Assembly (NCBI RefSeq): GCF_003334785.1
Contig: NZ_QOWV01000004.1
Source of the DNA: Escherichia coli
GTDB lineage: Bacteria > Pseudomonadota > Gammaproteobacteria > Enterobacterales > Enterobacteriaceae
Length of the DNA stretch: 64,000 bases
Direction: 5' to 3' (one strand)
The translations under genes and the position numbers were made by a program. Positions 35,401 to 49,127 of the stretch are shown here, piece by piece. How positions within the stretch are numbered: position 1 is the first letter of the stretch; each line of letters begins with the position of its first letter. The notes under the pieces are model-generated. The model saw nothing but the letters and a program-made list of their open reading frames with translations, made no database searches and was not told the DNA's origin.

Positions 35401-36937
35401 CTCTATCGAGGACTTAGCGCAGCTCATTTTCGACCTCAAGCAGGTTAACCCGAAAGCGATGATCTCCGTGAAGCTGGTTTCCGAACCGGGAGTAGGCACC
35501 ATCGCGACTGGCGTGGCAAAAGCTTATGCGGACTTGATCACCATCGCAGGCTATGACGGCGGCACCGGCGCAAGTCCGCTTTCATCGGTGAAATACGCAG
35601 GCTGTCCGTGGGAGCTGGGGCTTGTTGAAACCCAGCAGGCGCTGGTTGCTAACGGCTTGCGTCACAAGATCCGTTTGCAGGTCGATGGCGGCCTGAAAAC
35701 GGGTGTCGATATCATCAAGGCGGCGATTCTCGGCGCAGAAAGCTTCGGCTTCGGCACTGGCCCGATGGTGGCGCTCGGCTGTAAATATCTACGTATTTGC
35801 CATCTGAACAACTGCGCAACGGGTGTAGCAACTCAGGATGACAAACTGCGTAAGAACCACTATCACGGCCTGCCATTCAAGGTGACGAATTACTTTGAGT
35901 TTATCGCCCGTGAAACCCGCGAGCTGATGGCACAGCTTGGCGTAACACGTCTGGTGGATCTGATTGGTCGCACCGACCTGCTGAAAGAGCTGGACGGTTT
36001 CACCGCCAAACAGCAGAAGCTGGCGCTGTCGAAGCTGCTGGAGACTGCCGAACCGCATCCAGGTAAGGCACTCTACTGCACCGAAAACAACCCGCCGTTT
36101 GATAACGGCCTGCTGAACGCGCAGTTGCTGCAACAGGCGAAACCGTTTGTCGATGAGCGCCAGAGCAAAACCTTCTGGTTCGATATTCGCAACACCGACC
36201 GTTCTGTCGGCGCGTCGCTTTCAGGCTATATCGCCCAGACGCACGGCGATCAGGGGCTGGCAGCCGATCCTATCAAAGCGTACTTCAACGGCACCGCAGG
36301 CCAGAGCTTCGGCGTGTGGAACGCGGGCGGCGTGGAACTGTACCTGACCGGTGATGCCAACGACTATGTCGGTAAAGGCATGGCGGGCGGCTTAATCGCC
36401 ATTCGTCCTCCGGTTGGTTCCGCCTTCCGCAGCCATGAAGCAAGCATTATCGGCAACACCTGCCTGTATGGCGCGACCGGTGGTCGTCTGTATGCCGCAG
36501 GCCGCGCGGGTGAACGTTTCGGCGTGCGTAACTCCGGTGCTATCACCGTGGTAGAAGGCATTGGCGACAACGGTTGTGAATATATGACGGGTGGTATCGT
36601 CTGCATTCTGGGTAAAACCGGCGTTAACTTCGGTGCGGGCATGACCGGCGGTTTCGCTTACGTTCTCGATGAAAGCGGCGATTTCCGCAAACGCGTTAAC
36701 CCGGAACTGGTCGAGGTCTTAAGCGTTGACGCTCTGGCGATCCATGAAGAGCATCTGCGTGGTCTTATCACCGAGCATGTGCAGCATACCGGCTCTCAGC
36801 GCGGTGAAGAGATTCTGGCGAACTGGTCAACCTTCGCCACTAAATTTGCGCTGGTTAAACCGAAGTCCAGTGATGTAAAAGCACTGCTGGGTCACCGTAG
36901 TCGTAGCGCAGCTGAGTTGCGCGTGCAGGCGCAGTAA
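32477..36937 (+). CDS. gltB: Glutamate synthase (NADPH) large subunit
   Basis: 1486 aa from ATG ([26 protein letters not shown]...); track ORF extends 36 codons upstream to 32369. Confidence 0.96.
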
Positions 36938-38368
<1,431 letters not shown>

Positions 38369-38381
38369 GCGAGGTAACAAT

Positions 38382-38409
38382 GAATTCGCCAGACTGTGTC
38401 TGGCGAATC
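38382..38409. repeat. Palindromic unit (GAATTCGCCAGAC-TGT-GTCTGGCGAATC), 13 nt after the gltD stop
   Basis: 12-13 bp perfect inverted arms with 3-nt centre; same family as the units in and after yhcG. Confidence 0.8.
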
Positions 38410-38927
38410 AAATTACTGACGAAGTGCGCGTTGTTTTCTGGCAAATGCGGCATGAGCGTTTGACCTTTCCTATAATAGGGATAATTTTCAATAAATTGTG
38501 CTTTGTTCACCAAGTCTGATGAGTGAAGCACATCAAGCAATTTCTCATTTACAATCCGTCTCAATTACTTGTTAACACCTCTGACAATACCGATTCTGCA
38601 AGCTATTCAGTCTTTTCATTCCATGTAAATTGTCTCGATATTAATATACAAAATATGAATATAAAAAACCAATATATTATCCTTAATTATCTATATATTT
38701 TCCTATTTTTCAGCGCAAACATTCATGTAATGAATAATTATCACCACAAACCACCTCACCAGCACCTTATTATTCACATGATCGTAACTATAAAATTCAT
38801 TAAATAAATACATCCCAGCAAGTTGGCTATTTCTGAACGAGTTATTTATTTACATTCACAAACAGATATATATACTGCTTCAGCTTTTTATTTTAAAAAA
38901 TAAATTTGTTATTAAGGATATGTTCAT

Positions 38928-39692
38928 ATGTTTTTCAAAAAGAACCTCACAACAGCTGCTATTTGTGCAGCACTTTCTGTTGCAGCATTCAGTGCCATGG
39001 CAACAGATTCAACTGATACAGAATTAACTATCATCGGCGAGTATACCCCTGGTGCATGTACCCCAGTTGTTACGGGCGGCGGCATTGTTGACTATGGGAA
39101 ACATCATAACAGTGCGCTGAATCCGACCGGTAAAAGTAATAAACTGGTTCAACTGGGCCGCAAAAACAGCACATTAAATATAACCTGCACAGCACCAACG
39201 CTAATTGCTGTAACCTCCAAGGATAACCGTCAGTCGACCATTGTAGCGTTAAACGACACATCCTATATTGAAAAAGCTTATGATACTCTCGTAGATATGA
39301 AGGGAACGAAAAACGCCTTTGGTTTAGGTTCTGCGCCTAATGGACAAAAAATTGGCGCTGCATCCATTGGTATTGACAGGTCTAATGGTGGGATTCACGC
39401 GGCGGACGATACAGGTGAAATTCCTGTCGACCTGATTCAAACTGACCACTGGTCAGCAGCGACCCCCACATGGAAAGCCTCATCTAATGGCGCATTCTGC
39501 TCGCTGACAAGTTGCTCAGCAATCGAGCGCGGTTATTCTGTTGCAAAAACAGGGGAACTGACACCTGTTGCCATTACAGCGGTCACCTTCCCGTTACTGA
39601 TTGATGCTGCGGTAAATGACAATACTATTCTTGGTTCTGATGAAACGATCAAACTGGATGGTAACGTCACTATCAGCGTTCAGTATTTATAA
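38928..39692 (+). CDS. gltF: GltF, periplasmic fimbrial-subunit-like protein (DUF1120 family)
   Basis: 254 aa; signal peptide MFFKKNLTTAAICAALSVAAFSAMA; C-terminal ...KLDGNVTISVQYL shared with yhcF. Confidence 0.9.
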   Translation: MFFKKNLTTAAICAALSVAAFSAMATDSTDTELTIIGEYTPGACTPVVTGGGIVDYGKHHNSALNPTGKSNKLVQLGRKNSTLNITCTAPTLIAVTSKDNRQSTIVALNDTSYIEKAYDTLVDMKGTKNAFGLGSAPNGQKIGAASIGIDRSNGGIHAADDTGEIPVDLIQTDHWSAATPTWKASSNGAFCSLTSCSAIERGYSVAKTGELTPVAITAVTFPLLIDAAVNDNTILGSDETIKLDGNVTISVQYL

Positions 39693-39863
39693 GAACTTGT
39701 AATACAGTTTTTATTTTTACGCATTAACCAGTTAGCTATAACTCGGACAGATTATGCCCTATGACATGGTCTGTCTTAATCAATCTCATCGCAAACAGTG
39801 CATAACATATATTAACAATATGTTTCTGCGTTATTTATCATTATTACAGGAGTTTTAATTTAA

Positions 39864-40538
39864 ATGCTCAGACACATTACATTCACTGTATTTATAACAA
39901 CATCAATGAATACCTTAGCCACAGGGATGGTTCCTGAAACATCAGTATTGCTGGTTGATGAAAAGCGTGGTGAAGCTAGTATTAATATTAAGAATACAGA
40001 TGATCATCCTTCATTGCTTTACACCACCATTGTTGATTTGCCTGAAAGCAATAAATCAATTCGTTTAATCCCGACTCAGCCCGTTATTCGTGTTGAAGCC
40101 GGTCAAGTACAACAGGTTCGATTTTTACTTCAGGCGACTGTTCCTCTGCAATCAGAAGAGCTGAAACGCGTAACGTTCGAAGGTATTCCACCAAAAGATG
40201 ACAAGAGCAGCAGAGTTACTGTTTCAATTCGTCAGGATCTACCTGTACTGATCCACCCGGCTTCCCTGCCGGAAGAGCGAGAGACCTGGAAATTCCTGGA
40301 ATGGCGTAAAAATGGCGACCAAATTGAGATTAGCAACCCCAGTAATTATGTCGTTCGTATGACCTTACAATTTAAAACGCTCCCTTCAGGAAAAACGGGG
40401 GCTATAAATAAGACCTATTTTCTACCACACACCAGTACAACTACTGCATTAACAAACGCTACGGATACAAAAGTCGAGTTTTACCCAGCCAGCCGATATG
40501 GTTATCGCGGTAATAAATATGTCACTGACTTAAAATAA
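39864..40538 (+). CDS. yhcA: Fimbrial periplasmic chaperone (PapD-like)
   Basis: 224 aa; MLRHITFTVFITTSMNTLATGMVPETSVLLVDEKRGEASINIKNTDD... Confidence 0.9.
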   Translation: MLRHITFTVFITTSMNTLATGMVPETSVLLVDEKRGEASINIKNTDDHPSLLYTTIVDLPESNKSIRLIPTQPVIRVEAGQVQQVRFLLQATVPLQSEELKRVTFEGIPPKDDKSSRVTVSIRQDLPVLIHPASLPEERETWKFLEWRKNGDQIEISNPSNYVVRMTLQFKTLPSGKTGAINKTYFLPHTSTTTALTNATDTKVEFYPASRYGYRGNKYVTDLK

Positions 40539-40558
40539 CTTTGCCTGGAGCGACAAGG

Positions 40559-42940
40559 ATGTTAAAAAAAACGTTACTGGCCTACACCATTGGTTTTGCC
40601 TTTTCTCCCCCAGCCAATGCAGATGGTATAGAGATTGCCGCTGTTGATTTTGATCGGGAAACATTAAAATCACTAGGTGTAGATCCTAATATATCGCATT
40701 ATTTTTCCCGTTCAGCCCGTTTTTTGCCAGGTGAATATTCACTGATAGTATCAGTAAATGGCGAAAAAAAAGGCAACATTGCTACGCGCTTTGATGAAAA
40801 TGGCGACATTTGTCTTGATCAGGCATTTCTGCAACAAGCCGGTTTAAAAATTCCTTCTGAAGAAAAAAATGGCTGTTACGACTATATATTGTCCTACCCG
40901 GGTACCACAATCACACCATTACCTAACCAGGAAGCGTTAGATATTATCGTTTCACCACAGGCGATCATTCCCATAGGGTTGGATCTCACAAACGCAGCAA
41001 CTGGTGGAACAGCTGCGCTGCTAAACTACTCTCTGATGAGCAGCCGTGCAGAATTTTCTAATGGGAGTTCGGACTACTCCCAGGCTGCACTTGAAGGCGG
41101 GATTAATATTAATGACTGGATGTTACGCAGCCATCAGTTCCTTACACAAACAAATGGCACATTCAGTAACCAGAACTCGTCAACCTACCTTCAACGTACC
41201 TTTACAGATCTTAAAACACTCATGCGAGCAGGTGAAGTTAACCTCAATAATAGCGTGTTGGAAGGAGCCAGTATTTACGGTATCGAAATCGCACCGGACA
41301 ACGCATTGCAAACCAGCGGCAATGGTGTGCAAGTTACTGGTATAGCCAACACCTCTCAGGCTCGTGTCGAGATTCGTCAACAAGGAGTTTTAATTCATTC
41401 CATTCTGGTTCCTGCGGGCGCATTCACTATCCCTGATGTACCTGTTCGCAATGGTAATAGTGATCTTAATGTCACCGTTGTCGAAACAGACGGTAGTTCG
41501 CACAACTATATTGTTCCCTCCACCCTGTTTAATCAGCATGTAGAAAGCTTCCAGGGTTATCGCTTCGCGATAGGGCGGGTAGACGATGACTATGACGAAT
41601 CACCTTGGGTAATTAGTGCATCGAGCGGATGGAATCTGACACGCTGGAGTGCAATGAACGGCGGCGTTATCGTAGCAGAAAATTATCAGGCGGCATCAAT
41701 CCGGTCGAGTCTGGTTCCCCTGCCCGATTTAACAGTGAGCAGCCAAATTAGTACATCGCAGGATACGAAAGACTCACTGCAAGGACAGAAATATCGTCTT
41801 GACGCGAACTACAATCTCCCATTTTCACTTGGGCTAACAACCAGCCTCACTCGATCTGATCGCCATTATCGCGAACTGTCTGAAGCGATTGATGATGATT
41901 ATACCGATCCGACTAAAAGCACTTATGCGCTTGGTTTAAACTGGTCTAACTCCATTCTGGGTGGTTTCAACATCAGTGGCTATAAAACATATAGTTACGA
42001 CGGTGACAATGACTCAAGCAACCTTAATATTAACTGGAACAAAGCGTTCAAACACGCCACGGTTTCCGTCAACTGGCAGCATCAACTTAGTGCTTCAGAA
42101 AATAATGAAGACGATGGTGATCTGTTCTACGTCAACATCAGTATTCCATTTGGCAGATCAAACACCGCCACACTGTATACTCGCCATGACGATCATAAAA
42201 CCCACTATGGTACTGGTGTCATGGGAGTCGTCTCAGATGAGATGTCCTACTATGTGAATGCTGAACGAGATCACGACGAACGTGAAACGAGCTTGAACGG
42301 CAGTATCAGTTCCAATCTCCATTACACCCAAGTCAGCCTTGCCGCAGGAGCAAGCGGCAGTGATAGCCGTACTTACAACGGTACGATGTCAGGTGGTATT
42401 GCCGTACATGATCAGGGAGTGACCTTTTCACCGTGGACTATCAATGACACTTTCGCCATCGCAAAAATGGATAACAATATTGCAGGTGTCAGAATTACAT
42501 CTCAGGCAGGCCCAGTATGGACAGATTTTCGGGGTAATGCCGTCATTCCATCAATCCAGCCGTGGCGAACATCAGGAGTTGAGATCGATACCGCCAGCTT
42601 GCCAAAAAATGTCGATATCGGTAACGGCACAAAAATGATCAAACAAGGCCGTGGTGCAGTAGGGAAAGTCGGATTCAGTGCGATAACACAACGCCGTGCA
42701 TTACTCAATATCACACTTTCCGACGGCAAAAAACTGCCCAGAGGCGTTGCGATTGAAGATAGTGAAGGCAACTATCTGACAACATCAGTGGATGACGGTG
42801 TTGTATTCCTCAATAACATCAAACCGGACATGGTGCTAGATATAAAAGATGAGCAGCAATCATGCCGTATTCACCTTACATTCCCAGAAGATGCACCAAA
42901 AGATGTGTTCTATGAGACAGCAACAGGAGAGTGCCAATGA
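40559..42940 (+). CDS. yhcD: Fimbrial outer membrane usher
   Basis: 793 aa from ATG (MLKKTLLAYTIGFAFSPPANA...); C-terminal Cys pair. Confidence 0.9.
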   Translation: MLKKTLLAYTIGFAFSPPANADGIEIAAVDFDRETLKSLGVDPNISHYFSRSARFLPGEYSLIVSVNGEKKGNIATRFDENGDICLDQAFLQQAGLKIPSEEKNGCYDYILSYPGTTITPLPNQEALDIIVSPQAIIPIGLDLTNAATGGTAALLNYSLMSSRAEFSNGSSDYSQAALEGGININDWMLRSHQFLTQTNGTFSNQNSSTYLQRTFTDLKTLMRAGEVNLNNSVLEGASIYGIEIAPDNALQTSGNGVQVTGIANTSQARVEIRQQGVLIHSILVPAGAFTIPDVPVRNGNSDLNVTVVETDGSSHNYIVPSTLFNQHVESFQGYRFAIGRVDDDYDESPWVISASSGWNLTRWSAMNGGVIVAENYQAASIRSSLVPLPDLTVSSQISTSQDTKDSLQGQKYRLDANYNLPFSLGLTTSLTRSDRHYRELSEAIDDDYTDPTKSTYALGLNWSNSILGGFNISGYKTYSYDGDNDSSNLNINWNKAFKHATVSVNWQHQLSASENNEDDGDLFYVNISIPFGRSNTATLYTRHDDHKTHYGTGVMGVVSDEMSYYVNAERDHDERETSLNGSISSNLHYTQVSLAAGASGSDSRTYNGTMSGGIAVHDQGVTFSPWTINDTFAIAKMDNNIAGVRITSQAGPVWTDFRGNAVIPSIQPWRTSGVEIDTASLPKNVDIGNGTKMIKQGRGAVGKVGFSAITQRRALLNITLSDGKKLPRGVAIEDSEGNYLTTSVDDGVVFLNNIKPDMVLDIKDEQQSCRIHLTFPEDAPKDVFYETATGECQ

Positions 42941-43482
42941 AACGGATAATAACAGGATGCCTGCTGCTGAACTTCGCCATGGCCGCTCAGGCAGAGTGTA
43001 ATATCTCCAGTAGCATACAAAATATCGACTATGGCAAACGAAGTGCTGCCATGCGCCAAGTTGACCGGGGTAAAACAACACAATTAGCAGACAGAACAAT
43101 CACGCTGGTAATGCAATGCGATCAGGACGCTCATATTCGTGTTCAGTTGAATACCGCTAATATTTCCAACAACGGATTTGGATTTGGCCCGAATGGTTCA
43201 TTAAATCTGATCGCCAGCGATGCATTTTCAGGTAGTAACAATCTCGACCTGGCGTTAGCCAGTGGCAAAAATGACAATCCGGGCAGCACAGGAACAGCAT
43301 CAATTAGTACTTCCCCCAATAATTGGCTGGTGTTTATGCAAAATGGTCAAGAAGTGGTAATTGATAGCGGTAAAAGCGTTAGCCTCACACTGACAATGGC
43401 TCCAGCTTTTAAGGATGAAGGGGAACTAACCGACATGACAGATATTACAGGCAATCTGACGGTCCTGGTGGAGGCAAAATGA
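42937..43482 (+). CDS. yhcE: Putative fimbrial subunit YhcE (DUF1120-like), apparently intact
   Basis: 181 aa from ATG overlapping the yhcD stop (ATGA); signal peptide MKRIITGCLLLNFAMAAQA; no insertion sequence in or near the ORF. Confidence 0.8.
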   Translation: MKRIITGCLLLNFAMAAQAECNISSSIQNIDYGKRSAAMRQVDRGKTTQLADRTITLVMQCDQDAHIRVQLNTANISNNGFGFGPNGSLNLIASDAFSGSNNLDLALASGKNDNPGSTGTASISTSPNNWLVFMQNGQEVVIDSGKSVSLTLTMAPAFKDEGELTDMTDITGNLTVLVEAK

Positions 43483-44195
43483 ACAATGTAAAATTACTGA
43501 TTGCCGGAAGTGCCTTTTTTGCCATGTCAGCGCAAGCCGCTGATAGAGTATCAATTGACGTTAAGGTGACTCTGGAAGCTGCAGCTTGTACTCCAATACT
43601 AAGCAACGGCGGAGTTGTTAACTTCGGTAGTCATTCAGTCAATAGACTTTCAACGCAGCACTACACACAGATTGGAACACGTAATATTAATATGACTATA
43701 ACTTGCGAATCCGCTACCGGCATTGCGATTACCGCTCGTGATACACGAATGGATAGTATGACCACCGGAAAAGATAGTGGGGGTCAGAGTGGTGTAAAAT
43801 ATACCTTAAATGGCGGAGGTTATATTAGCCAGACAACGCGCTTATTCGGCTTAGGGAAAACAAAAGATAATAAAAATATCGGTAGTTATGCCGTGTTAAT
43901 TGATAGCAACAACATTAGTGCCAGCAATGGTAGCCAGACGTTAGCTGTATCAATAGCAGGTGCAGATGCCGTCATAACAGGGCAAAAAAGAGCATGGCAA
44001 ACGCTCACCGCTTATCCGCTTGCAGTCGATCAAAGCTATTATTACACCTTTGTAAAACCAGGTGAAACAACCCCAACTCCTGTAACGAACGCCATTATAC
44101 CGCTTCAGGTGAGCGCATCTATCGCGAATGATTTAGGCGGTTCAGAAAAAATCGAACTTGATGGGAAAGCTGTGATAAGCGTAGTCTACTTGTGA
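43479..44195 (+). CDS. yhcF: Putative fimbrial subunit YhcF (DUF1120 family)
   Basis: 238 aa; signal peptide MNNVKLLIAGSAFFAMSAQA; C-terminal ...ELDGKAVISVVYL paralogous to gltF. Confidence 0.85.
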   Translation: MNNVKLLIAGSAFFAMSAQAADRVSIDVKVTLEAAACTPILSNGGVVNFGSHSVNRLSTQHYTQIGTRNINMTITCESATGIAITARDTRMDSMTTGKDSGGQSGVKYTLNGGGYISQTTRLFGLGKTKDNKNIGSYAVLIDSNNISASNGSQTLAVSIAGADAVITGQKRAWQTLTAYPLAVDQSYYYTFVKPGETTPTPVTNAIIPLQVSASIANDLGGSEKIELDGKAVISVVYL

Positions 44196-44379
44196 TAACA
44201 ATGCCGGACAGGAGTACTATCAGGCATTCGTTTTATACGATCGGTTAATGTTTCAGGAAAGCTCTTCGCATATCTTGGGGAAAGTAAATGTAATACGCTG
44301 TTCTTAATTGTTCAGTGCTCACCCCCCAGAGTATAGCTCATTCCATTATTCAACTTAGCTCCATATAAAGGGACAGATA

Positions 44380-45507
44380 ATGGAATCGCTCTCAGAAGGA
44401 ACCACAGCAGGCTACCAGCAAATCCACGACGGTATTATTCATCTGGTCGATAGCGCCCGGACGGAAACGGTACGTAGCGTTAACGCGTTAATGACCGCGA
44501 CGTACCAGGAAATTGGCCGACGAATTGTCGAATTTGAACAAGGTGGCGAGGCCAGGGCTGCGTATGGTGCGCAGCTAATCAAGCGACTATCAAAGGATTT
44601 ATGTCTAAGGTATAAGCGTGGGTTCTCTGCAAAAAACTTACGCCAAATGAGGCTTTTTTACCTCTTTTTTCAACATGTTGAAATTCGCCAGACAATGTCT
44701 GGCGAATTAACACCATTGGGAATTCCGCAGACACCGTCTGCAGAATTCCCATCGGCAAAGATTTGGCAGACGCTGTCTGCCAAATCTTTCCCCTTGCCCA
44801 GGTCCACCTACGTCCGTTTACTTTCCGTTAAAAACGCTGACGCCCGCAGCTTTTATGAAAAAGAGACGCTCCGCTGTGGCTGGTCTGTTCGCCAGCTAGA
44901 GCGGCAAATTGCGACCCAGTTTTATGAGCGGACACTACTGTCACATGACAAATCAGCCATGCTGCAACAACACGCTCCTGCCGAGACGCATATTCTTCCG
45001 CAACAGGCGATACGCGATCCCTTTGTGCTCGAATTTCTGGAATTGAAAGATGAATATTCAGAATCCGATTTTGAGGAGGCGCTGATCAACCACCTGATGG
45101 ATTTCATGCTGGAACTTGGGGATGATTTTGCCTTTGTTGGTCGGCAGCGAAGGTTACGCATTGATGACAACTGGTTTCGTGTCGATCTGCTGTTTTTCCA
45201 CCGCCGTTTACGCTGCCTGCTAATCGTCGATCTAAAAGTGGGCAAATTCAGCTATAGCGATGCCGGACAGATGAATATGTATCTCAACTACGCCAAAGAG
45301 CACTGGACGCTACCGGATGAAAATCCGCCCATCGGTCTGGTTCTCTGTGCAGAGAAAGGAGCCGGAGAAGCGCATTATGCTCTGGCAGGTTTGCCTAACA
45401 CCGTTCTGGCAAGCGAATATAAGATGCAACTACCTGATGAGAAACGACTCGCAGATGAACTCGTTCGAACACAGGCGGTGCTAGAGGAAGGCTATAGACG
45501 CCGTTAA
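44380..45507 (+). CDS. yhcG: YhcG, DUF1016-family protein with PD-(D/E)xK nuclease-like C-terminal region
   Basis: 375 aa; MESLSEGTTAGYQQIHDGIIHLVDSARTE...; C-terminal ...RVDLLFFHRRLRCLLIVDLKVGKF... resembles a D...(D/E)xK core; contains three in-frame palindromic repeat units. Confidence 0.85.
   Translation: MESLSEGTTAGYQQIHDGIIHLVDSARTETVRSVNALMTATYQEIGRRIVEFEQGGEARAAYGAQLIKRLSKDLCLRYKRGFSAKNLRQMRLFYLFFQHVEIRQTMSGELTPLGIPQTPSAEFPSAKIWQTLSAKSFPLPRSTYVRLLSVKNADARSFYEKETLRCGWSVRQLERQIATQFYERTLLSHDKSAMLQQHAPAETHILPQQAIRDPFVLEFLELKDEYSESDFEEALINHLMDFMLELGDDFAFVGRQRRLRIDDNWFRVDLLFFHRRLRCLLIVDLKVGKFSYSDAGQMNMYLNYAKEHWTLPDENPPIGLVLCAEKGAGEAHYALAGLPNTVLASEYKMQLPDEKRLADELVRTQAVLEEGYRRR
44682..44787. 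repeat. Three tandem 27-29 bp palindromic units (CAGAC-N3-GTCTG core) inside the yhcG coding sequence
   Basis: Units at 44682-44708, 44720-44748 and 44759-44787 with 38-39 bp periodicity; 12-13 bp inverted arms, two perfect and one with a single mismatch. Confidence 0.8.
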
Positions 45508-45520
45508 TTTCAGCGGTTTC

Positions 45521-45548
45521 GAATTCTGCAGACAGTGTCTGCAGAATC
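45521..45548. repeat. Palindromic unit (GAATTCTGCAGAC-AGT-GTCTGCAGAATC), 13 nt after the yhcG stop
   Basis: Perfect inverted arms; same family as 38382-38409 and the intragenic yhcG units; lies between convergent yhcG and yhcH. Confidence 0.8.
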
Positions 45549-45566
45549 TTTAAAACGAACTAAGTT

Positions 45567-46899
<1,333 letters not shown>

Positions 46900-46903
<4 letters not shown>

Positions 46904-47589
46904 AGCACCGCCTTTTTCATCGCTGTGTTGTACCACTGACAAATGTGCTCAAGACGCGTGATTGCAGAACCGACCGTCACCGCCCACGCGCCGTGGCGCA
47001 TCGCATCCGCCGCCTGAGCAGGCGTGTTGTAACGCCCTTCGGCAATCACCCGACATCCGGCGTCGCTCAACGTTTTCACCAGCGCCAGATCCGGCTCTTC
47101 TGGCGTTTCAGGCGTGGTATAGCCAGAAAGCGTAGTGCCAATAATTTCGGCTCCCAGCTTTTGGCATGCCAGGCCGTCTTCCGGCGTTGAGCAGTCGGTC
47201 ATCGCCAGTAAACCGTGATGGTGAATACGTGCCAGCAGCGTTTCAACAGGCACCGGACGCGGGCGGTCGGTGCCGTCAATGGCGATAATGTCCGCGCCCG
47301 CCTGCGCCAGCGCATCAACATCTTCAATATAGGCCGTGATGCGTACCGGAGAATCCTCCAGATCGCGTTTCACAATTCCAATAATCGGCACGCTCACCAC
47401 CGCACGCGTGGCTTGCAGATTTGCCACACCTTCAATGCGAATGGCAACCGCGCCCGCCTGTTCTGCCGCTAATGCCATGGCGGCGACGATTTCGGGTTTA
47501 TCGAGCGGGCTGTCCGGAACCGGCTGGCAGGAGACAATCAGGCCACCGTTAGCAGCGATTTTTTGATCCAGTTGTGCAAGTAACGACAT
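46900..47589 (-). CDS. nanE: N-acetylmannosamine-6-phosphate 2-epimerase
   Basis: 229 aa from ATG ([30 protein letters not shown]...). Confidence 0.95.
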
Positions 47590-47636
47590 ACATCTTCCCT
47601 TAGCGAAAGGCCCGGTACATAGACCGGGCAACAGGA

Positions 47637-49127
47637 TTAACTTTTGGTTTTGACTAAATCGTTTTTGGCGCTGCCAAACGGCACGGCACCGCTGAATGGT
47701 TTACCGTCGATAGCGTCATGAGTACGCAACGCTTCCGGGCGCAACCAACGCTGAACGCGAGAAGGCATATCCAGCCCAATCAGCAGGATCACCACGAACG
47801 TCAGACTGAACGAGAGCGATGCCAGCGCAGTACCCAGATCCAGACGTTGAGCGATCAACGCGCCGATGATTGGGGCCAGTGCACCGCCCAATGCGCCAAC
47901 GTTGTAGGTAAAGCCCAGGCCCGCTGCACGCTGGTCGGTATCGAAATAACCGCCAATCAGTTTTGGTAAGATCCCGGCGATCCCTTGTCCAAGCATTTGC
48001 TGGAAGAACAGTAACAGACCGAGCACCCAGACGTTTGCGCCGCCAATCGCAAATACCGGAATAATCAGCAGCTGCGAGGCCAGCAGGCTACAAACGTACG
48101 CTTTGCGGGTTCCCAGCCAGTCACCGAGGAAGCCACCTACGCAGCATCCCACCGCCGCGCCAAAGCCACTAAAGAACAGCACATTGGCTACAGTATGCGG
48201 GTTATAAGCCAGATCGGTTTTCAGATACGTTGGCAGCAGCGCCTGAATCGGCCATGAGTAGAGGAAAGCAAACAACACGACCACCATCAGCATTACGCCC
48301 GTTGGCCAGCGTTTGCCTGTACTCTGCACCATAAAGCTGATAAAGATTGCGGCGCATAACAGCCCAAGAACAGCGACGATCGCGGCATTTTGCAGGTTAC
48401 CGGCGAAGCAGAACCACAGCGCAGTAGCCGCCGCCAGTGTCATTACGATATTGGCAATGCGATGTTCACCACGGTAGAGAATATCCACCATTGTGCGTAC
48501 TGGTGCTTTACCTGCGTGTTTCTCTTTCCAGTCTTCCGCTTCCGGGATGTTTTTACGCAGCCAGAGAGCAAAGATGATTGGCAAAATGCCGATAAAGAAC
48601 AGCGCACGCCAGCCCCAGACCGGAACCACCAGGCTATAGACCTGAGCGGCAACGACGGCCCCCACAGAGAAGCCTGAAATCAAAAAACCACTGGCTTTGT
48701 TACGCAGATGTTTTGGCCAGCTTTCAATGACATAGGTGGCGCTGGAACCGTATTCACCCGCCATCCCCATGCCGATGACCAGACGAGCGATAAACATGGT
48801 GATGTAGCCTGGCGCAAAGCCGCAGGCCAGCGTCCCGGCCGAGAAGAGAACGATGCTGGTGACCATTGCCAGACGACGCCCGTAGCGGTCACCCATAGCG
48901 CCGAGCATCAGGCCGCCGAACCAGCGAGAGATAAAGGCTGCAGAGATCAGACTTGCCGCCTGCACCGTCGTCAGCCCGAATTCACCTTGTACTTCGGTGA
49001 GTACCAGGGCGATTAAAACGAAATCAAAACCGTCAAGCAGATATCCCAACCAGGCAGCGGAAAATGCGCGCCATTGTGCACGGTTGAGATGGCGATACCA
49101 CGGGATATTCTGGGTTGTAGTACTCAT
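47637..49127 (-). CDS. nanT: Sialic acid MFS transporter NanT
   Basis: 496 aa from ATG ([36 protein letters not shown]...). Confidence 0.95.

Follow-up and report, generated by a model that had tools for sequence, protein, structure and literature searches.

A solo extragenic palindrome next to Escherichia coli yhcG descends from a coding palindrome of DUF1016 nuclease genes and may have been co-opted as a 3′ stem-loop

Short palindromes placed past stop codons between convergent genes are familiar from repetitive extragenic palindromic (REP) sequences and bacterial interspersed mosaic elements (BIMEs), which may protect mRNA 3′ ends, can act as rearrangement hot spots and are linked to one gene, that of the REP-associated tyrosine transposase (RAYT, or TnpA-REP), with copies adjacent to it. 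Stable stem-loops without a U-tract also define the mature 3′ ends of Rho-terminated transcripts, which are trimmed back to the hairpin. In integron attC sites the outer and inner motifs are conserved, and the middle varies but remains complementary; the sites are recognised as folded DNA and lie right past the stop codon of a cassette gene. Perfect inverted repeats are also found within protein-coding sequence, both in Nematomorpha mitochondrial genes (PMC6649704) and in yeast genes, where the arms are homogenised by template switching (PMC8604942). The present analysis concerns unitR, a palindromic unit between the convergent genes yhcG and nanQ (yhcH) in a 64-kb stretch of E. coli DNA (RefSeq assembly GCF_003334785.1, contig NZ_QOWV01000004.1), which is referred to as a whole as the window and carries the gltBD, yhc fimbrial operon, yhcG and nan region. 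UnitR resembles each of these systems in some of the properties just named; for the unit, protection or trimming of a 3′ end and recognition as folded DNA would be suppositions.

The unit nevertheless differs from all of them. Its sequence appears unrelated to the REP consensus, only five units are present in the window, all at one locus, and the wider family spans bacteria, archaea and viral contigs, with parent units that lie in frame inside a PD-(D/E)XK gene rather than flanking an HUH transposase gene. REP membership was rejected, as the sequence, the copy distribution and the three intragenic copies do not fit. An attC identity was also rejected, since the unit lacks the R″/R′ cores (RYYYAAC ... 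GTTRRRY) and extrahelical bases, pairs perfectly and has its main copy in the middle of an open reading frame (ORF), with no integrase annotated in the corresponding MG1655 region. Compared with the 3′ stem-loops of Rho-terminated transcripts, the hairpin has a sequence that is not arbitrary but copied from a conserved coding palindrome, and the 3′ end in published data maps to its sibling unit. In contrast to the Nematomorpha and yeast repeats, a single short palindrome here keeps the same codon position throughout one gene family, in different domains of life, and has solo derivatives outside the gene.

We give a probability of roughly 55% to the explanation that unitR is a solo copy of the DUF1016 coding palindrome which has been co-opted as a 3′ stem-loop and is, as DNA, prone to rearrangement. 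Its ancestor is a 25-nt palindrome, ATTYNN-CAGAC-NNN-GTCTG-NNRAAT, carried in frame by YhcG/DUF1016 genes in a linker of the N-terminal region. The features on which the argument rests are as follows.

45521–45548, no strand: unitR, solo extragenic palindromic unit, with a perfect palindrome at 45523–45547
38382–38409, no strand: unitL, sibling solo unit GAATTCGCCAGACTGTGTCTGGCGAATC, 13 nt past the gltD stop
44681–44707, plus strand: yhcG intragenic unit 1, coding for I-R-Q-T-M-S-G-E
44720–44746, plus strand: yhcG intragenic unit 2, with one arm mismatch, 39 nt from unit 1
44759–44785, plus strand: yhcG intragenic unit 3, where both the E. coli B-type truncation (after 44785) and an IS1 junction (44764) have their breakpoint
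44380–45507, plus strand: yhcG, encoding a DUF1016_N and YhcG_C PD-(D/E)XK nuclease that matches PADLOC PDC-S02
36950–38368, plus strand: gltD, whose mRNA 3′ end maps directly past unitL
38410–45520, plus strand: the 7.1-kb block gltF-yhcA-yhcD-yhcE-yhcF-yhcG between the solo units, absent together with one unit in 556 genomes
45567–46031, minus strand: nanQ (yhcH), the convergent neighbour, whose own transcript must traverse unitR

The core CAGACNNNGTCTG occurs five times in the window (38390, 44689, 44728, 44767 and 45529) against 0.05 expected, three times in frame inside yhcG, once after gltD and once after yhcG, which bears out the statement of the first-pass annotation that unitR belongs to the same family as the intragenic units. 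The latter are spaced by 39 nt, or 13 codons, and each codes for I-x-Q-T-x-S. Arm changes among the units of the window compensate each other (CGCCAGAC/GTCTGGCG, TGGCAGAC/GTCTGCCA and CTGCAGAC/GTCTGCAG). Positions 45523–45547 of unitR fit the 25-nt pattern exactly, with 11/11 outer and core pairs in Watson-Crick form, and the unit is physically linked to a DUF1016 gene, as yhcG matches PF17761 and PF06250. Being extragenic, unitR does not have the in-frame position typical of the family and belongs to a minority class of solo copies. The E. coli DNA scanned for units amounted to 131 kb, comprising the window and 67 kb of MG1655 that include the same locus; no units were found in MG1655 1–50,000, and BLAST is too insensitive to find variants of a 25-nt unit. 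No match to any Rfam family was obtained for positions 36000–48000 of the window at E up to 1. The MG1655 RefSeq table is blank at the units, which is uninformative, as the same table shows no REP features in the 67 kb. Two differences from K-12 were seen in this region: unit 1 is perfect in the window (44685, ATTCGCC...) and has one A.C mismatch in MG1655 (ATTCACC..., L216 13135), and yhcE is free of IS5 in the window and interrupted by IS5 in K-12, which marks the window as DNA of a different strain.

The palindrome was also followed across DUF1016 genes. YhcG combines DUF1016_N with a YhcG_C PD-(D/E)XK nuclease domain that resembles NucS and restriction endonucleases, and the protein matches the PADLOC candidate defence family PDC-S02; no NCBIfam family matched it. 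The strict pattern ATTYNNCAGACNNNGTCTGNNRAAT, scanned in one genome per species, gave at least 120 loci, with chance matches estimated at about 17 for the whole genome collection. Among the matches listed, these sites span many bacterial phyla as well as archaea, and 97 of 138 lie inside YhcG-like ORFs, in one constant frame that always reads I-x-Q-T-x-S. A palindrome-independent sample of 80 homologue loci from viral contigs, seeded on nuclease-domain peptides alone, showed nearly uniform codons for Q-T-x-S (CAG in 20/22, ACA in 19/22 and TCT in 21/22). Homologues without Q-T-x-S have a different palindrome at the same place (for example AATTGCGTCCGCA-C-TGCGGACGCAATT, AATTGTCGTATCA-C-TGATACGACAATT and AATTGGTCAACAAGCTGTTGACCAATT), and these divergent palindromes share an outer AATT and a central CA-S-TG.

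Protein alignment gave a register for these comparisons, the palindrome being centred on base 1 of the codon that lies six codons ahead of the W in LSWSHY. With this anchor, at least 10 of 13 complementary pairs were found in 36 of 60 unique sequences, compared with a mean of 3.4/13 at a control anchor. In 40 in-register sequences, 86.5% of the cells are paired, a percentage inflated by the choice of sequences in register with at least 8 pairs, and both sides change in 12 of 13 pairs. The covariation score of this set is 0.718, against 0.166 for shuffles and 0.05–0.14 for slid partners; the slid controls and the protein-anchored count are fairer measures than the paired percentage. The corresponding protein segment is a loop of low confidence in the AlphaFold model, in which residues 97–125, most of the unit-encoded stretch, have neither helix nor strand and the predicted local distance difference test (pLDDT) score is below 50 at 103–123. 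The constraint on the family thus acts on the nucleic acid, and it resembles either Watson-Crick pairing of DNA or a process by which the arms stay identical. A helix formed by mRNA alone should tolerate G.U pairs. On the sense strand of YhcG-type units, however, there are 16 G.U against 25 A.C, and the broad set has only 2 G.U in its eight inner pairs, a comparison that gave no support to an RNA-specific helix for the family. The strict Watson-Crick covariation with almost no G.U points to a DNA-level constraint. The element was not found described in the literature searched, which did not take in the Rudd 1999 survey of K-12 intergenic repeats.

In many copies the dyad symmetry extends through the centre (A-N-T loops), and the solo units of the window adjoin the glt and nan operons, as could be expected of a double-stranded operator bound by a dimeric transcription factor such as a nan or glt regulator, or of a dispersed, mobile palindrome of the REP or miniature inverted-repeat transposable element type. 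Such an origin appears very improbable. Positions 5 and 6 vary among the units of a single gene yet stay complementary, which a reader of half-sites would not accommodate, and the same unit occurs across phyla without a common regulator. A dispersed repeat is further disfavoured by the confinement of the five units to one locus in 64 kb, with none in MG1655 1–50,000, and by the lack of a REP consensus, of a target-site duplication and of an Rfam match.

At the level of its own sequence, unitR reads GAATTCTGCAGAC-AGT-GTCTGCAGAATC, with arms of 13 and 12 nt. The first-pass annotation had called it a perfect hairpin; the palindrome is real, but the outermost G..C pair requires a bulged A, so that perfection is limited to 45523–45547, ATTCTGCAGACA-G-TGTCTGCAGAAT, with 12-bp arms around a single central G. 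One EcoRI site (GAATTC) and two PstI sites (CTGCAG) fall within unitR; they are incidental but could be useful in mapping or cloning. The yhcG stop codon TAA occupies 45505–45507, leaving the 13-nt gap and the position between convergent yhcG and yhcH that had been reported, and the stop codon of nanQ on the minus strand (45567–45569) lies 18 nt past the unit. The predicted RNA folds have energies of -16.6 kcal/mol on the plus strand (z -2.6) and -22.7 kcal/mol on the minus strand (z -5.5), and the DNA folds reach -10.8 and -10.9 kcal/mol with z of about -6 and 0/200 shuffles equal. A promoter and terminator scan gave no hit of any kind at unitR, and no terminator-like T-tract site on either strand, in agreement with the earlier remark that the unit lacks a U-tract and is not a canonical intrinsic terminator. 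Neither the plus-strand tail beyond it, CUUUAAAA, nor the minus-strand tail, UCGAAACC, has a T-tract, and an intrinsic terminator was rejected on both grounds. Ordinary terminators provide a contrast: of the 12 perfect palindromes of at least 10 bp in the window, units make up 4 and A-tract/T-tract terminators of this ordinary kind another 7. The arms of unitR are identical in K-12-type, O157-type, 370-aa-allele and cryptic-clade Escherichia, where the centre alone varies (AGT, ACT and GGT). The AGT and ACT centres are mutual reverse complements, which is the expected outcome of hairpin template switching (PMC8604942).

Experimental support for a stem-loop role comes indirectly from the sibling unit. 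In MG1655, gltD ends at 3360616, unitL spans 3360630–3360657 and unitR spans 3368968–3368995. Supplementary file 1 of the Term-seq study by Adams et al. 2021 (PMC7815308) lists a curated 3′ end at 3360660(+), primary for gltD, which places the end of the gltD mRNA 3 nt past unitL, within CAAA and without a U-tract. According to supplementary file 2 of the same study, one Rho termination region lies at 3361307(+), inside gltF and downstream of unitL, and another at 3368581(-), antisense within yhcG and 387 nt past unitR on the nanQ strand. A 3′ end at unitL with a Rho region downstream fits Rho termination followed by trimming back to a protective stem. Part of the suggestion of a "REP-like 3′ stabiliser" in the first-pass annotation is thereby strengthened: a stabiliser gains indirect experimental support from the unitL 3′ end and the Rho regions of these files (PMC7815308), whereas REP membership does not stand. 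The same files also list a Rho region at 3367906(+), 80 nt into yhcG, and a strong 3′ end at 3367641(-), of antisense RNA G0-10703 opposite yhcF; together with the antisense region at 3368581(-), they point, within that listing, to unexplored antisense and attenuated transcription at the yhcG locus.

Kluyvera and Pseudocitrobacter have terminators consisting of a stem and a T-tract at the corresponding place past yhcG. UnitR, standing at this site, most likely acts as a stable 3′ stem-loop. The transcripts of yhcG and of the convergent nanATEK-nanQ operon would pass it without being stopped intrinsically, Rho would end both further on, and the ends would then be trimmed back to the unitR stem, by analogy with the gltD mRNA at unitL. 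As DNA, the unit would be a rearrangement-prone palindrome that, together with unitL, borders a block of genes.

Solo copies comparable with unitR are present in other phyla. Among the matches listed for the pattern-found loci, 46 of 170 core sites lie outside DUF1016 ORFs; 36 of these 46 solo units are outside any ORF of at least 100 aa (26% of random positions are), and 10 of the 46 lie no more than 40 nt past a stop codon (1.9% of random positions). An extragenic copy was found in only about 1 of 80 palindrome-independent loci. In one locus (L088) a gene lies between 48-bp direct repeats with one unit in each repeat, in four others (L033, L048, L086 and L103) units lie 8–30 nt upstream of the DUF1016 start codon, and some solo units occur in short DUF1016 gene fragments that start or end at the unit (L003, L068, L077, L079 and L114). 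Arrays of solo units were also observed, with three units about 680 nt apart and with identical flanks in L079 (110–1487), two units 146 nt apart in L012 (13878–14048) and two overlapping by 2 nt in L028 (4089–4136); they look like tandem duplications that include the unit.

Orphan units in gene fragments raise the question of whether unitR arose neutrally, as a short duplicate or relic of part of the yhcG linker region, and has its palindromy kept perfect by template-switch ("quasi-palindrome") mutation without any function. Template switching homogenises the arms of inverted repeats and inverts their spacers (PMC8604942), and the AGT and ACT centres of unitR are an exact loop inversion. In addition, the sequence next to unitR has a weak similarity to that surrounding one unit inside the gene, with 14/23 matches over about 20 nt upstream and 7/7 over 7 nt downstream. 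A profile search of the flanks, however, found no DUF1016 coding remnant past the unit, solo units are strongly intergenic and enriched directly past stop codons, unitL coincides with a real mRNA 3′ end, and unitR has kept its place in every yhcG-bearing Escherichia lineage sampled. A neutral relic is therefore considered unlikely, and co-option as a 3′ stem-loop remains our preferred explanation.

The intergenic region was compared across strains, a check that the earlier annotation had proposed. The yhcG-unitR-nanQ segment is nearly unchanged in 3,712 of 5,426 complete E. coli genomes, and in 556 of the 5,426 the match starts exactly at 45521 and covers the nanQ side only, a single unit being kept without the block. 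In this class, inspected in two loci (L001 and L129), gltD is followed by one perfect unit and then directly by nanQ, and the outer flanks of unitL and unitR align to either side of the lone unit. The K-12-type arrangement, with gltF-yhcADEF-yhcG between unitL and unitR behind gltD, was found in 1,236 genomes. Synteny of gltD and yhcG without the fimbrial operon and without unitL is seen in Salmonella, Citrobacter koseri, Pseudocitrobacter, a cryptic Escherichia clade and O157-type E. coli. The order gltD-yhcG-nanQ of the outgroups is thus ancestral and the one-unit allele derived, so that the latter was rejected as a pre-insertion state. As the one-unit allele carries the K-12-type left flank GCGAGGTAACAAT, its simplest reading is a deletion from unitL to unitR. 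The lone unit has unitL-type arms on both sides, placing the deletion junction at the unit edge, where the two units share only GAATC. UnitL and unitR are therefore the borders of a gltF-yhcG block lost by strains of the uropathogenic and avian pathogenic E. coli (UPEC/APEC) type, a deletion to which the rearrangement-prone palindromes may themselves have contributed. In genomes that lack the fimbrial operon, as seen in O157:H7 (L126 9080–9140), an unrelated hairpin, CAGCGCCG...CGGCGCTG, lies behind gltD instead of unitL. Divergence from the K-12 type begins 2 nt past the gltD stop, so unitL came in with the gltF-yhcF block.

Other breakpoints also coincide with units. In a large genome class, to which E. 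coli B, C43(DE3) and O104:H4 belong, yhcG stops precisely with the final base of unit 3 (44785), and unrelated DNA takes the place of the remainder of the gene. In one member of this class (strain 98223, L127 9668–10120), about 450 nt replace the C-terminal two thirds of yhcG as well as unitR, and within them lie a 101-aa ORF annotated "transposase" and, ahead of nanQ, a different hairpin, GGCACAGAGC...GCTCTGTGCC. In ETEC6-type genomes, IS1 has the right edge of unitL on one side and the left arm of unit 3 on the other, and the lack of a target duplication indicates an IS1-mediated deletion. E. coli yhcG alleles with one, two or three units exist, and a 307-aa allele could have arisen by a deletion from TTCGCCAG of unit 1 to the next TTCGCCAG that the window has, 200 nt further downstream. 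A 370-aa allele is almost identical to the window protein except at residues ~84–135 around the units, where it is Pseudocitrobacter-like (44630–44790 compared with P0016 and P0035), a pattern that suggests a recombination patch centred on the palindromes.

Several points weigh against co-option as a rearrangement-prone 3′ stem-loop. That the arms of unitR are invariant within Escherichia carries no information, the flanks being just as conserved. The deletion of the block could be one historical accident between two short repeats. The near absence of G.U pairs and the palindromy through the loop favour a constraint on DNA over one on RNA, and any RNA role may be secondary or absent. Expression also has to be considered, as the nan operon and yhcG are presumably poorly expressed in LB and in glucose minimal medium. 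The published Term-seq data place a 3′ end 3 nt past the sibling unitL, but for the yhcG and yhcH transcripts, whose 3′ end mapping had been put forward as a check, no curated 3′ end stands at unitR in the supplementary listing of PMC7815308, obtained in LB and M63 glucose minimal medium.

Several of these observations could also be explained if the unit served the YhcG nuclease as a cognate site, folding into a hairpin or cruciform for the protein to bind or cut, with outside copies serving as operators or att-like sites and the gene with its adjacent cargo forming a cassette that can be excised and inserted. A DUF1016 gene is the only factor that always accompanies the palindrome, and its nuclease domain is akin to NucS and restriction endonucleases. 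The strict Watson-Crick covariation without G.U and the conserved outer AATT and central CA-S-TG are in line with such a site, as are the placement of units just upstream of start codons, the cassette-like repeats of L088, the E. coli block between units with its one-unit "empty" alleles and the breakpoints at unit edges. We nevertheless regard this explanation as doubtful for unitR. Extragenic copies are rare among palindrome-independent loci, and B2-type strains retain a perfect unit although yhcG is gone at the locus. A central crossover predicts hybrid units, and none were seen, both flanking units being internally self-complementary. Moreover, Salmonella, Citrobacter and cryptic Escherichia clades share the order gltD-yhcG-nanQ, which shows that the locus was inherited vertically rather than being mobile.

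A related question is why the parent palindrome lies inside DUF1016 genes at all. The best candidate answer is that the nuclease itself uses it as a hairpin or cruciform site, and the main competing answer is that mutation by template switching alone maintains it. It is possible, and proposed here only tentatively, that a structured-DNA element serves as a cognate site inside these candidate defence nuclease genes, for self-regulation, sensing or cassette-like recombination, with the solo units as its footprints. If so, an unrecognised module of a protein with an embedded DNA site would extend from archaea to E. coli and also to viral contigs. The surprising part is the palindrome at the level of the family, and its maintenance by compensatory change at one codon position offers a handle on what the uncharacterised DUF1016 nucleases (PDC-S02) recognise. 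For E. coli, co-option as a 3′ stem-loop would explain two unannotated hairpins and provide a likely 3′ end determinant for the gltBD and nan/yhcG transcripts, and the units mark the borders of a common presence/absence polymorphism in which the Yhc fimbrial operon is lost together with yhcG, as well as those of other frequent yhcG truncations, including that of E. coli B. In two further loci the DUF1016 frame switches at the units, which lie at 2390 and 2429 in L045 and at 1644 in L092. The N- and C-terminal parts occupy different, overlapping frames, each of which stays open through the palindrome, and the switch could reflect a pseudogene, an assembly error at the hairpin or a frameshift site.
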